DNA of 64,000 nt from Lachnospiraceae bacterium (GTDB lineage: Bacteria > Bacillota > Clostridia > Lachnospirales > Lachnospiraceae): positions 4,656 through 68,655 of the forward strand of contig JAZOAG010000021.1 of assembly GCA_045595325.1 (NCBI GenBank), given 5' to 3'. The position numbers are program-made. How positions within the stretch are numbered: position 1 is the stretch's first letter; every line of letters begins with the position of its first letter. Positions 21,001 through 27,000 of this stretch are shown here, one piece after another.

Positions 21001-24000
21001 CAGAAGAGAAGAGTGAGGCGGAGGAAGAAAGCGGTACGCAGGAAAGTACTTCCGAGGAACACAGCGAGACAGGGGAAGATGAGGATAAGGACGAGGCAAA
21101 CCGGAAAGCATTGGAGTTGTTTCGGGAACTGATTCTGGAATCCCGCGGAGATGAATTGACACAAGAGGAGAACGATTTATTTGTTGCGGGTGCAGTACGG
21201 ATTGAAAACAGCCCCTTTCTCGGGGAATGGAATCGTACAGAAGTCAGGCTGGGAAACGCAGGAAACCTTATCATTACGGAGAATGCGGATCAAAGCGTTA
21301 TGGCAAGCGGTGATTTTTTTGCGTACGGAAATTCCGGATATATCGGGGAAGCACCGTGTTTGTTCCTGAATGATGTCAGCTTAGTTATTCTTGATGAAGA
21401 AGGAAGTGCCACCTATCTGCTTCAATTGAATGCAGACGGAATGCAGGTGTCACAGTACGGTTTCGGCTGTATGGGGGCAGGTGCATTCGGATACGGCAAG
21501 TTTGTTAAGGGAGCGCCTGTGTATACGGATGCCTTTGAGATTCAGGAGACTTTCACTGCGGAAGAACTTGCGGCAGTAGAAGCGCTTATGCAGGTAAACG
21601 GTCTGGATTATGAAGAGTATTTTATTAATGCAATCAGTGGCTCCTACGGACCTATTATAACACCGATGCCGGCGGATTTAGAAAACGGAAGCCATGTGGA
21701 TGGAAGGCTGATAGAGGCATATGCGCCTCATGGATTAACGAGAAATCTGGTAATGTACATTGACAATAACGGAGATATTTATATGACATCATCGTTTAAT
21801 TTCTCTGATGCCCCCGAGTATTACACCACCAATTCAAGTCAGACGTATATGCCTGCGGGTGAATAAGATAAGTTCCTGTTTTTCAACAAGAAAGGAAGAG
21901 AGATATGTTGACATTTACCTGTACAAATTGCGGAGCGGAATTGTCAGTAAGCCGAATTGGTGCACTGTCCTGTCCGCATTGCGACTCCAAGAAGTTTTTC
22001 ACGGACGAACAATTGAAAGAATATAAGGAATTCCGTCTTAAAATGCTGGAGTATTTAAGCGCTGAGGCCCAAAGCGAAGAAGCAACGGAAGGTAGCAGAC
22101 AGTTATGGAACAGTGCGGAGCAAACCGTATTTAAGTCCATGGACGGAGATGATATTACCGTGGAATATATTTACAAGGGCAGCGATGGCGCGGCTTCCGT
22201 TTACGTAGCCCGAAAAAGTGTGATTTACTTTTTCCCTGCCGGTCATACGCAGGACGCACAGCAGATGCTCTCTCTGATAAATAAGGTTACATATCCCCAG
22301 GCGGATATGAGAGGATTAGAACGCAGTTTCCCTGCTCTTAGCGGGCGTTTTACGTTAAGAGACGGGGGGATGCTGCTGGTATTCTCCAAACCGGAGAACG
22401 CTTATCCGGCAATTCTTTTCGGGGACCTTTCCGCGAAACATGTGGAGTGGATTATTTCCCGTATGGAAAATATTGCATGTGTTCTTGCTTACAGTAATCT
22501 CGAACACGGCGGGATGAATGCAGAAACGCTTTTTATTAATCCCTGGACCCATGAAGCCATTCTTTACGGCGGATGGGCTAAGGCAAAGACCATTGCCGGG
22601 ACAACGACTACGGATTTGGTGAAAATCCGCGAATGCGGCAGACAATTGCTCGGAGACGGTTTTCAGGCTGCTCCCGCGCCGCTGATTCGCTTTTTGAAGA
22701 GTTCCCCTAAGAGCAATGCATATGATGATTTTGCAGTTTGGGATGATGTCATTGAAACGCAGCTTGGCGGAAGACATTTTACAAAGTTTGAAGGTTAGTA
22801 TTCTTAAAAGATAAGGAGATAAAAGAATGGGAAGAGGAAGTTATACCAGTGCAGATTGGAGTAAATTAAAGAACAGTTCTAAAATAACAGAAACCTCCAC
22901 AACCTCTCAGATTTTTAAGGCAGAAAAGATGGAAGAACGTTTCGACCCGCGTTTCGTGAATGCCCGTGAAGCGAGAGATTCGGAGGAACATCCCGATTCA
23001 ACGCCCATTATTATCGGATTGGATGTAACGGGCTCCATGGGATATCTTTCCACGGAGATTGCAAAGAACGGATTGAATGAAACCATGATGAAGATTTATG
23101 CCACCAATCCCGTAAAGGATCCCCAGATGCTTTTTGCAGCAGTCGGAGATGTAAGTGATTATGCGCCGCTTCAGGTGACGCAGTTTGAATCGGATATCCG
23201 TATTGCGGAGCAGCTGCTTGCACTTTGGTTAGAGGGAAACGGAGCGGATTCACCGGAGGATTATGAACTTCTGTGGTATTTTGCGGCGAAACATACAAAG
23301 ATTGATTCCTTTGAAAAGAGGGGAAAGAAGGGATACCTTTTCACCATCGGAGACGCAGATTGTCATCCGAATTTAAGCGCAGGAGCCATTAAAAGAATAT
23401 TTGATGATGACACGCACGGATTCACATCGGAAAAACTGGCAAGTATGGCAGGCGAGAAATATGAGGTATTTCATATTCATATTCAGTCTTCTATGGATAA
23501 GCCGCCCAGAAAAATGGCAGAGATTCTTCCGGGACGAATTCTTTGTATTTCCAAACAGGCAGTTTCTCACTTGCCTGAGATTATTATCAGTGTAATGGAA
23601 CTGGTAAACGGTAAGGATATGGAGGAAGTGATTTCGCAGTGGCCTTCCCTAAGTCAGCCGGTGGTTAAGTATGCCGTGAAAGATATTGTGTTAAAACAGC
23701 CGAAGAAAGGATTTTTCTTTTGAAAAAACCATATTTTAGTGCGGTAATCGGTCGGGGCTTCGGGGATGAAGGAAAGGGAATGATGGTGGATTATCTGGCA
23801 TCCCAATCCGAACATTCTCTTGTGATTCGTCACAATGGCGGTGTACAGTCGGGACATACGGTAGAGATTCCGGGAAATCGTTTTGTTTTTCACGGACTTG
23901 GGTCCGGAACTTATCGGGGCGCTCATACTTTTTGGGCAGATACTTTTTTCCCGGATTTGTACAAATTCGGGGAAGAGGTGGAAGCTTTTCAGAAGGAGGC

Positions 24001-27000
24001 CGGTTTCAGACCTTGTATCTACGCGGATGTGAACACACCGGTTACCATTATTGATGATGTATTGCTTAATATGGCGGCAGAATTAAGCCGTAAAGACAAA
24101 CGTCACGGCAGCTGTGGAATGGGCATCTATGAGGCGCAGTGCAGAACCATGGCAGGATATGACATCCGGCTGGGGGAATTTAGGACATTGACGCAGGATT
24201 CCCTGACAGACCGGCTGGGTCTGATTCGCAGGGACTATGTACCGGGACGGATGAAGGAACTTGGAATATGGCCCGATGCCTGTGACAGATGGGAAGAATT
24301 ACCAAAGACCCTGCAAAGAGAGGGAAGGTGGTCTGATTCCCTGGGTGAGTATCTGGAAATGTTACAGAATGATACAGTGCTTCGAAATGCGACGGAACAG
24401 ATGCTGGCAAACTTTAAGTATGTTTGCCCGGTGGAAAATGTTGCAGCTTTTATTACCGGATATGAGAATGTTATTTTTGAAAACGGACAGGGACTGCTCC
24501 TGGATTCGGAGAATTCCTTTTACAGTCCCCATGTGACGGCATCCAGGACCGGACTTACCAATCCGTGCAAAATATTGCAGCGAATGGGAGAGAAGCTGGA
24601 CGCGGTGTTCTATGTGACCCGAAGTTACGTAACCAGGCACGGTGCCGGCTATCTGCCCGGTGAATGTACGGCTGCGGAATTAGGAATTCGGGAAGAAGAT
24701 TCCACTAACACATACAATCCCTGGCAGGAATTTTTAAGATATGCAAGACATGAGTCGGTGGAGAAGCTGCTTATGCCGATAAAGGAGGACATTAAGAATC
24801 TGAAAGAATCAGGGATGTCGGGAGCAGAGGTAAATATTCTTGTTACACACTTAAATGAAACGGATGGATGTGTAGTGACAGAAGAAGGGGATGTGCCTGA
24901 GGTATTGTTTACAGAGTCTGTTCTGGTGAATGGGAGTATTCACCGGGTGGGCGTGAGTGAAACACGCTACAGCCGGGAGATAAGATGGACAGACAGCAGA
25001 GGGAAGGATTTGACAGAGTAGAGAATAATGCGCAGGTTTTTGAAAGAGGAGATTTGAATAAATGAAAAAGAAAGTTGTTGTGTTGGGAGGCGGAACGGGC
25101 TCTTCCACACTGTTAAGAGGATTGAAAGAGTTTCCCTTAGATATTACCGCCATAGTTTCTGTCTGTGATGACGGAAACAGTACGGGTGTACTGCGGGAGG
25201 AATTCAGTATTCCTGCCGTTGGAGATATTCGCCGGGTACTGGTGGCGTTGTCGGAAACGGAGCCACTGGTAATGGATTTGTTTAATTACCGGTTTCATAC
25301 TACCAGTGATTTGGATGGGCATACGGTGGGAAATCTTTTGCTGACGGCCTCGTCCGAAATAACCGGAAATCTATCTGACGGAATTGAAGCTTTGAGCAAA
25401 GTTTTTAACCTGAAGGGGAAAGTGGTTCCTTTGACGGAGGATAACGTGGTTCTCATGGGAGAGATGTCGGATGCAGAGATCATCGAAGGAGAACATAATA
25501 TTACGAAATACCGGAAGGGAATTAAAAATGTATTTTATAAGGAGAAGCCTGTGCCTACCAAAGCTGCGGTGAACGCAATCCGGGAGGCGGATTTGATTCT
25601 TTTAAGCATGGGAAGTCTTTTTACCAGTATTATTCCCAACCTGATTTGTGATGAGATTGTGGAAGCCATGGATGAGAGCAAAGGCAAGATTATGTATGTC
25701 TGCAATATGGTGACCCAGCCGGGAGAAACGGAGAATTTCACCGTTTCTGACCATGTAAAACTTCTGAACCGCTATTTGGGGAAACGTAAGGTAGATGTAG
25801 TGGTGGCAAACACCGGTGAAATTGATGCCCAAATGGCCAAAAGGTATGAATCCTTAGAACAAAAGGATCCCGTGATACTTGACAGGGACGAAACGGAAGC
25901 ATTGACAGAAACTTTGATTTGTGATGATTATGTGACGGTCCGCAACAATTTACTGCGTCATAATGTCCTGAAACTGGGAATGCATATTTTTGGATATCTT
26001 TTGGCAGGCAGTGATATGGAGTAACCGGAGCATTTTTTTGCAAATAGCTAAAAAACAATAATATATCCCTATTTTTGTGAGAGAATATCCCTTGTTTTTG
26101 AGGGATATTTCTTTTATGTTATAAAAGGAAAGTGCAAAGGGGATGCAATAGTAATCGTGAATCCTTTGCGATAATATATTTAATGGAGAAAAACAATGAA
26201 AAAATGGATTCGACTGGCTGCCATAGGAATGGCAGTGTCCGTCTTAACCGGATGCGGTGGAGCAGCGGATACGGAACTGGAAACAATCACGTTGGATACT
26301 TATGAACGCACTACATATGAAACAGCAGAGGTAATGCAGGGCGATTTGATTCCGATGGTATCTCTTCAGCTGACACCTTCAGCAAAGGAAAGCGTGACAT
26401 ACCAGCCTTTGAAGGACAACATGGAAGTAAAACAGGTATATGTGAAAAACGGTGATTATGTCCAAAAAGGTGATGTCATGGTTACTTTCAAATCAGAGGA
26501 AGTAGATGAGAAAATCAAGCAGTATAACGAGGAAGTTGATATGATGGTTATGCTGGTGGAACATTACGAGAAACTGATGGAAGTAAACGATGAACTGGAT
26601 TATAAGGATGATATCGAACAGCTTAAGAAGGATATAGACATTAAGCGCATGTATATTTCCGAAGAGAATGCGAAATTAAGCAGTTACAGCATCAAGGCGG
26701 AACGAAGCGGAGTGGTTTCTTCCGTATCAGACCTTTTGTATTACGGAACCGTTGGTTTAGGGGATAAAGTTGTTACGGTGATATACAATGAAGGGGATTA
26801 TTATGATGCTACTACGGATGACTATCCGTTTCAGGTCGGCGATATCTATGAGGCCAAAGCTTCTCTGGGGACATTTGAAGTGGAGCTGACCTCCATCGAG
26901 GATGGAAATACGTCAAGAACCCTTCATTTCCGGCCGTTGGATATGCGTAATACTGCTAATATCAATCTTTTGGAATTGAATATTATCAAAGATGTTAAGA

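Follow-up and report, generated by a model that had tools for sequence, protein, structure and literature searches.

Three adjacent genes, here named A, B and C, in a stretch of 64,000 nt from the metagenome-assembled genome (MAG) of a Lachnospiraceae bacterium (GenBank GCA_045595325.1, contig JAZOAG010000021.1, positions 4,656 to 68,655; this whole stretch is called the window below) make up a conserved and apparently undescribed cassette, of which the window holds the Clostridial zinc-ribbon variant. Judged by its sequence, C is a divergent paralog of the adenylosuccinate synthetase PurA and not a standard PurA; the fold predicted for B is that of a vWA domain, and A combines a zinc ribbon with what appears to be a catalytically dead kinase fold. 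The explanation that we favour, tentatively and with rather less than even confidence, is that the three products may form a nucleoside triphosphate (NTP)-driven C-N ligase complex, which would join a purine nucleotide to an amine other than aspartate and have a role in the purine, adenylate or nicotinamide adenine dinucleotide (NAD)/ADP-ribose pool.

The genes are co-oriented, with a gap of 28 nt between A and B, and the TGA stop codon of B overlaps the TTG start codon of C in the sequence TTGA. No purine-biosynthesis genes were found within several kb of them in the list of open reading frames (ORFs) and the Pfam scan of the window. The same layout had been given in a preliminary description of the window, with which the ORF list agrees exactly. 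The features of the cassette are the following (aa, amino acids; MIDAS, metal ion-dependent adhesion site).

21905..22798, + strand: gene A, 297 aa, with an N-terminal Zn ribbon and a predicted pseudokinase domain (from the ORF list).
21920..21982, + strand: Zn-ribbon motif of A, CxxC-13 residues-CxxC; across 46 homologues, C23 and C26 never vary and C6 and C9 hardly ever do.
22813..22818, + strand: Shine-Dalgarno (SD) sequence AAGGAG of gene B, 8 nt before the ATG of B, which fixes the N-terminus MG...
22827..23723, + strand: gene B, 298 aa, a predicted vWA/MIDAS protein with a conserved N-terminal tail.
22827..22868, + strand: N-terminal motif MGxGSYxxxDWxxL of B; M1, G2, G4, Y6, D10, W11 and L14 are invariant in 50 Clostridial sequences.
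23022..23036, + strand: MIDAS-type motif D66-x-T68-x-S70 of B; these three residues do not vary in 50 homologues, and D176 hardly does.
23720..25021, + strand: gene C, 433 aa, TTG start, a PurA-fold protein with conserved N-terminal two-thirds and a replaced C-terminal third.
23750..23779, + strand: P-loop of C, G11-x3-G15-D16-E17-G18-K19-G20, invariant in 35 homologues and equivalent to residues 12-17 of the E. coli PurA structure 1ade (G12-D13-E14-G15-K16-G17).
24671..25018, + strand: C-terminal third of C, residues ~318-433, unalignable to canonical PurA by HMMER or hhalign.

Species-representative bacterial genomes were scanned with an alignment of B, and a match was found in at least 583 of them; bacterial counts out of 80 refer to the best-scoring loci, which come nearly all from rumen or gut Clostridia, including the cultured Butyrivibrio sp. 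LB2008 and Ruminococcus flavefaciens MC2020. The order A-B-C is kept in about 72 of these 80 loci, the stop codon of B and the start codon of C overlap by 4 or 1 nt in 48 of 68, and no other gene is conserved beside the three in the 80 loci. Among viruses, B was detected on 535 IMG/VR contigs, the best 80 of which provide the viral counts, and a homologue upstream was detected with A of the window in no fewer than 48 of these. Recurrence of one gene order in about 72 of 80 loci from bacteria, and in at least 48 of 80 from viruses, is far more than chance would give. Adjacent homologues of B and C were also present in about 220 GenBank phage records, comprising about 200 Bixzunavirus mycobacteriophages, Rhizobium RHph_TM phages, Vibrio Va1-like phages and one human-gut phage. 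In Mycobacterium phage Tonenili the genes follow the order 'Ser/Thr kinase' gp106 (with weak J-domain and Pkinase matches), B homologue gp105 and PurA-like gp104. B is also carried by 21 plasmids, which are for the most part megaplasmids of Rhodococcus, Agrobacterium/Allorhizobium, Acetobacter and Tsukamurella; four of the five plasmid loci inspected are intact, with the full triad and a J-domain-like A, and the fifth, from Rhodovulum, is degraded.

The cassette is accessory and patchy. Within the genus of this MAG a C-like copy occurs in 10 of 25 genomes, this MAG included, and across the family B is carried by 10 of 301 genus representatives. One congener (G006) carries the cassette as A-B'-B-C, with a tandem copy of B, at a different locus and with 35-47% identity, as against 55-74% for its housekeeping neighbours; the low identity and the different locus therefore point to independent acquisition. 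The comparison was made at the protein level, the DNA identity being about 67% and DNA synteny uninformative. Conservation of the triad as a unit, its patchy spread and its occurrence in phages, all raised in the preliminary description, were thus borne out, the genes co-occurring across very distant genomes of bacteria, phages and plasmids. The nearest true homologues are the uncharacterised gp104-gp106-type genes of Bixzunavirus (cluster C1), which have the same triad in the same order, with identities of 33-37% for B and 29-30% for C. They differ from the window copy in carrying a J domain instead of the Zn ribbon and in a kinase-like protein that retains an Asn and an Asp (IDW), both missing from Clostridial A. 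No functional papers on these phage genes were found in the literature, nor any published description or functional characterisation of the triad or a defence-system model for the cassette, in agreement with the preliminary description; RefSeq names the homologues of A and B 'hypothetical protein' and those of C 'adenylosuccinate synthetase'.

C matches PF00709 with E 6e-32, the match covering model positions 1-278 of 416 only, and scores far below the purA equivalogs (78.7 bits with TIGR00184, cut-off 395.55; 89.2 with NF002223, cut-off 402). When a family profile of 35 members was aligned to 1ade, PurA residues 4-284 aligned and nothing beyond, and hhalign of C against the canonical PurA of a congener ended at residue 289. 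The core shared with PurA (EC 6.3.4.4; PF00709, TIGR00184) includes equivalents of Asp13, Lys16, His41 (H46 of C, invariant in 35 homologues), Gln224 and Thr239. The aspartate of GDEGKG, placed at position 15 in the preliminary description, is D16 in the ORF of C. Changes that are invariant in the family are N38 to Q, T128 to S, T129 to C, R131 to M and V273 to H. Gln224, Thr239, Asn38 and Thr129 are what we take to be residues of the inosine monophosphate (IMP) site in E. coli PurA structures.

The C-terminal third of canonical PurA holds the TTGRxRR aspartate loop (Thr300-Arg305) and the TKLD guanine motif (331-333). The corresponding part of C has two family-invariant motifs of its own, D327-x-T-N-x-x-N-x-W-Q-x3-R340 and T376-H-L-N-E-T, which may stand in place of the aspartate loop and the guanine motif, respectively; if THLNET were the counterpart of the guanine motif, an equivalence inferred in a region that cannot be aligned, Lys would be replaced by His and Asp by Asn. 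An L-aspartate site was not recognised in C: Arg131 is Met, and the TTGRxRR loop was not found by HMMER or hhalign against the E. coli and congener PurA proteins. The retained P-loop, His and Gln lead us to read C as a probably active NTP-dependent enzyme that activates a purine-type carbonyl; that no recognisable aspartate ligand is left speaks for some other nucleophile. C also differs from PurA in being always encoded with a vWA partner and in coexisting with a canonical purA in most carrier congeners.

B had no Pfam match in the scan of the window proteins, and so none to the Pfam vWA family, but matched phrog_2971 with E 5e-36. Its AlphaFold2 model has a pLDDT (predicted local distance difference test) score of 87.5, and Foldseek matched the model to the vWA domains of integrin beta-I, SpaC, 4fx5 and CMG2 with probability 1.0. 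On this model B is a vWA domain with a predicted MIDAS metal site, the vWA assignment being made by fold alone. The N-terminal tail, with a pLDDT of 54-71 in the monomer model, starts with MGxGx[FWY] in the GenBank phage and plasmid copies too. Its start may be regarded as fixed, because among 84 homologous starts an SD-like motif and an ATG were each present in 82 and an in-frame stop codon lay no more than 90 nt upstream in 79. The B family comprises 1,891 clusters at 50% identity among 1.84 billion representatives, and most of the top 150 matches of its profile begin at position 1 of both profile and protein.

Tandem duplication of the vWA gene (A-B'-B-C) is seen in about 14 of the 80 Clostridial loci (L040, L053, L059, L061, L062, L065, L066, L070, L074, L077, L079, L084, L085 and L087), in a subset of Ruminococcus, Oscillospiraceae and other lineages. 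The MGxGSY tail is present in B and B' alike, except for B' of L059. The MIDAS sequence of B' is usually DVTAS (or DATAS, DVTSS or DVTTS) and that of B is DVTGS, DDTGS, DSTGS or DDTAS.

In A, the Zn ribbon (Cys6, Cys9, Cys23 and Cys26), to which Pfam gave weak matches, precedes a kinase-fold domain at about residues 66-297. The AlphaFold2 model of A (pLDDT 86.4) had the kinases ASK1, VRK, PknB and WbdD as its top Foldseek matches, with probability 1.0. In the family alignment the place of HRD is taken by HGG, that of the catalytic-loop Asn by Thr or Ser, and that of DFG by GGW, while W182, S185, R186, E188, N189, C192 and H216 are invariant. On the model and the alignment A is a predicted pseudokinase, because the catalytic residues of HRD, Asn and DFG are all absent, from the viral as well as the bacterial copies. 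The domain calls of the preliminary description thus stood as regards the PurA domain of C, the vWA fold of B and the Zn ribbon and kinase fold of A, but A lacks the canonical catalytic residues and the working Ser/Thr kinase that had been proposed is not supported; the phosphorylation-based sensor logic of TerY-P systems is consequently unlikely.

The N-terminal module of A is exchangeable. An HPD J-domain motif replaces the Zn ribbon in 28 of 30 phage copies from IMG/VR loci, and plasmid copies look J-domain-like at the N-terminus as well. The phage copies align with Clostridial A over the whole pseudokinase domain. The kinship emerged solely through the IMG/VR loci and the alignment, tblastn of A against GenBank phages having given no match.

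The neighbours of plasmid and phage copies bear on the possible role of the cassette. A gene for an NrtR-like NUDIX protein, identified by phmmer, adjoins it in five of the five inspected plasmid loci, from Proteobacteria and Actinobacteria, and at the Allorhizobium locus this gene is divergently transcribed and encodes a bona fide regulator with NUDIX plus NrtR winged-helix parts. In a Rhizobium phage, NMNAT/NUDIX and phosphoribosyltransferase genes lie upstream of the cassette. The link to NAD-salvage loci suggested in the preliminary description holds at the plasmid loci and fails in the window and this genome, where no link to NrtR, NUDIX or PncA was seen and no NrtR-like gene was found. 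The association with NrtR is lineage-specific and suggests control that responds to ADP-ribose in Proteobacteria and Actinobacteria. The NrtR-like NUDIX genes lie at L168:4148-4873(-), L169:8407-9039, L171:6846-7493, L172:2601-3731(-), L170:2627-3283(-) and L043:5173-6120; the one at the Acetobacter locus is unannotated.

According to the explanation that we favour, the genes of the window would be one copy of a widespread, horizontally mobile cassette whose products act as one complex. C would be the catalytic subunit, its PurA-fold core binding a 6-oxopurine-type nucleotide along with an NTP; the carbonyl oxygen would be phosphorylated by C in the manner of PurA, and an amine other than L-aspartate would displace the phosphate, the aspartate pocket being gone, to yield an N6-substituted adenosine monophosphate-like nucleotide or a related adduct. 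B would be an obligatory stoichiometric partner, translationally coupled to C, that docks on C and presents or gates the second substrate. A would be a dead kinase-fold scaffold, its exchangeable module (the Zn ribbon here, a DnaK-recruiting J domain in phages and plasmids) coupling the complex to a cellular partner. The cassette as a whole may serve to manipulate or salvage the nucleotide pool, be it that of purines, adenylates or NAD-ADP-ribose. The tight, translationally coupled linkage of B and C across phyla and phages argues for a physical complex, and A looks like a scaffold or coupling subunit because it is a predicted dead kinase with a swappable N-terminal module.

Several points weigh against this explanation. 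Complex formation is deduced from gene linkage by itself and the substrate from a handful of retained PurA residues. Because the IMP-phosphate ligands N38 and T129 are changed, the nucleotide may not be IMP-like, and C could be a mere phosphotransferase without the amine step. A does not seem to be universally required, as about 22 of the 80 viral loci hold B-C without a detectable A, and in some phages a Met/Gly-rich protein is encoded upstream of B-C in place of A. An NrtR-like NUDIX neighbour occurs in one of the 80 Clostridial loci and no NrtR-like gene in this genome or window, and the NAD/ADP-ribose role may not apply in this genome. The RNA evidence is weak because it consists of assembled contigs of one metatranscriptome, with possible DNA carry-over.

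The Met/Gly-rich protein is about 200-280 aa long and has no Pfam match. It is encoded in Vibrio, Rhizobium and gut phages (L002:4252-4965, L004:3696-4526 and L005:4477-5085) and in six IMG/VR loci (e.g. L128:4252-4983). An N-terminal motif, F(R/K)(K/Q)VDGVVWDxMxG, is common to the copies from Vibrio and Rhizobium phages, and all three have a poly-Met/Gly C-terminal tail.

Comparison with described systems places the cassette apart from each of them. PurZ, the phage 2-aminoadenylosuccinate synthetase, is like C a repurposed PurA paralog found in phages, and C matches phrog_1211 (labelled PurZ) with E 2e-46; it scores, however, far below the cut-off of the PurZ model NF038379 (36.4 bits against 300). 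PurZ keeps an aspartate site, whereas that of C is unalignable. A PurZ/Z-genome module was ruled out by this score and by the lack of a conserved datZ, mazZ or dpoZ neighbour in 80 bacterial and 80 viral loci, since no neighbour beyond A, B and C is conserved. MoxR-vWA systems likewise encode a vWA/MIDAS adaptor beside an NTP-using enzyme, but no AAA+ ATPase is conserved beside the cassette in the 80 Clostridial and 80 viral loci, one plasmid locus having an AAA_5/MoxR-like gene downstream. In the published annotated-gene list of Vi01-like phages, the adenylosuccinate synthase and vWA genes are ten entries apart, so that this is probably not the same cassette.

The closest parallel in architecture is the TerY-P triad (Gao_TerY-P), in which a TerY-like vWA protein goes together with a PP2C phosphatase and with a Ser/Thr kinase that is fused to a Zn ribbon (Anantharaman et al. 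2012, in the account of PMC11090510). Both systems are accessory and mobile and comprise three genes, for a vWA/MIDAS protein, a Zn-ribbon kinase-fold protein and one enzyme; they differ in that the cassette has a PurA-fold ligase as its third enzyme instead of PP2C, and in that the Zn ribbon is C-terminal in TerY-P and N-terminal in A, with a J domain in phages. The kinase fold of the cassette further lacks HRD, Asn and DFG, no TerY-P match was obtained with PADLOC, and lytic phages carry the cassette. A PP2C gene was found neither as a fourth conserved gene in the 80 loci nor within the top 25 Pfam families of the proteins encoded by the two genes on each side of the cassette at 31 Clostridial loci (124 proteins).

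These 124 flanking proteins also bear on the view that the cassette is an anti-phage defence triad, in which the vWA and kinase-like proteins would sense infection and switch on C, leading, by analogy with TerY-P, to nucleotide depletion or to a toxic or signal nucleotide. We consider this unlikely. It would fit the patchy, accessory spread with independent acquisitions within one genus, the parallel with TerY-P as outlined in PMC11090510, and the presence of the cassette on megaplasmids, one plasmid copy adjoining an AbiEii toxin gene. Against it, no PADLOC model (E <= 0.1) matched A or C, and B had one weak match (PD-T4-6, E 0.028); the kinase is predicted to be catalytically dead and a PP2C partner is absent. 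Among the flanking proteins PADLOC gave generic-looking mad3/mad8 (the example shown being an ABC-transporter protein), pVip and GlgB matches and one kinase-type PD-T4-6 match, and Pfam identified ABC transporters, PFK, TIM, tRNA synthetase, AddB, UPRTase and glycoside hydrolases. Neither defence genes nor genes of mobile elements recurred among them. The Clostridial cassette is not in defence islands, the flanks at the 31 loci being housekeeping and transport genes, contrary to the enrichment considered in the preliminary description. TerY-P and other catalogued defence systems were ruled out by the PADLOC result and these non-defence flanks. Hundreds of large lytic phages carry the cassette, which is hard to reconcile with an abortive-infection effector; the lytic phages, the NAD-salvage neighbours in the Rhizobium phage and the NrtR-like neighbours on plasmids are why a nucleotide or NAD/ADP-ribose role is favoured over abortive infection. 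The idea that the proteins sense a trigger and then activate the enzyme, put forward in the preliminary description, is pure inference.

A protein-directed ligase seems, if anything, slightly less likely still. C would then couple a purine nucleotide via its C6 to the alpha-amine of Gly2 of B after removal of the Met ('N-terminal purinylation'), NTP activating the 6-oxopurine C6 and A linking the complex through its Zn ribbon, or recruiting Hsp70 through the J domain in phages. Such a reaction would account for the MGxGx[FWY]...DW sequence that runs from residue 1 in essentially all B and B' proteins of Clostridia, Proteobacteria, Actinobacteria and phages, and it suits the fixed start of B, with most top-150 matches beginning at residue 1, the flexibility of the tail in the model, the lost pocket for free aspartate in C and the translational coupling of B and C. 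This support is circumstantial, however, and a tail so invariant might just as well serve as a docking peptide, supply a MIDAS ligand (D10) or act as an autoinhibitory plug. Far less probable than either is that C is the ordinary or back-up adenylosuccinate synthetase of the organism, with A and B as incidental neighbours. In its favour, RefSeq labels the homologues of C accordingly, and C is the sole PF00709 match in this MAG, whose estimated completeness is 96%; that C is the only purA of the genome had been named in the preliminary description as part of what would speak against its own reading. In congener G006, purA adjoins pyrG, glmS, guaA, asnB and amt; tblastn of the proteins of that locus against this MAG gave no match for PyrG, GlmS and Amt, C itself as the only PurA match and weak partial matches for AsnB. 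Both pyrG and glmS are near-universal, and since they are absent too, this MAG seems to miss the purA region; the absence of canonical purA is most likely an assembly or binning gap. That C is the only PF00709 match is therefore uninformative, the more so because most carrier congeners have a canonical purA as well (E about 1e-165, in 7 of the 10 genomes with a C-like copy, among which this MAG is counted). A housekeeping purA was ruled out by the score, the missing aspartate loop and R131, the unalignable guanine motif, the canonical purA of congeners and the gap in the MAG, and C is always linked to B, in phages included. Of the GuaA protein of the G006 locus, the C-terminal 313 aa only were matched in this MAG.

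Identification of the product of C, be it an adduct of protein and nucleotide or a purine nucleotide in modified form, would define a new enzymatic reaction. New nucleotide chemistry seldom arises from PurA paralogs, PurZ having given the Z-genome, and the cassette has been kept by hundreds of Clostridial species, by megaplasmids and by large phages of at least four host phyla. The product would also explain a gene set long labelled 'PurA-like' in about 200 sequenced mycobacteriophages, and N-terminal purinylation, if true, would be a previously unknown post-translational modification. These proposals can be put to the test directly in cultured carriers, namely Butyrivibrio sp. LB2008, B. hungatei, Ruminococcus flavefaciens MC2020, Rhodococcus jostii RHA1 and the Bixzunavirus phages of M. 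smegmatis.

The cassette of the window is flanked by genes for ABC/FtsX permeases, an erythromycin-esterase-like protein, a DUF4190 protein, a lipoprotein, a YvcK/CofD protein and HlyD-like adaptors, and the base composition across the region is unremarkable. The downstream neighbour is given here for context.

25062..26024, + strand: yvcK/CofD-family gene (PF01933, E 5e-97), possibly co-transcribed with C here.

Among the 80 Clostridial loci compared, YvcK lies next to the cassette solely in the genome of the window and is not a cassette member elsewhere. In a pattern scan no terminator-like site was listed from the lipoprotein gene to A or from C to yvcK; past yvcK, the first such hairpin occurs at 26083-26110. 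Contigs assembled from one gut metatranscriptome span 20811-22819 (the lipoprotein gene and A), 23235-23949 (B-C) and 24960-25321 (C-yvcK). These contigs are consistent with polycistronic transcription, and the genes are probably expressed. Counts of k-mers upstream of A in 58 Clostridial loci gave only -10-like words and no conserved operator, and no Rfam family matched within or before the triad. RNA control of the triad, by a riboswitch or otherwise, was ruled out, the only nearby RNA element being a sub-threshold thiamine pyrophosphate (TPP) riboswitch of another gene.

This TPP element (RF00059, 20182-20360; 40.4 bits against a gathering threshold of 54.3, E 2.3e-6) lies 1.6 kb upstream of the triad, with a terminator-like hairpin after it, and precedes an ORF of 101 aa (20404-20709) tentatively read as YkoF/MTH1187-like. 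One metagenome run showed a spike of 394x depth at 20201-20467, as expected if the aptamer is common to many species. On the Allorhizobium plasmid pAtS4e (L168:8408-12882) the cassette is followed by genes for an AAA_5/MoxR-like ATPase and DUF5682 and DUF4132 proteins and preceded by a type VI secretion system VgrG gene, an arrangement seen at no other inspected locus. In the window, the 854-aa HlyD-like adaptor (ORF 27176-29740) of the neighbouring ABC/FtsX efflux cluster contains a long low-complexity insert rich in Ser, Glu, Asp and Pro at 28576-28938.

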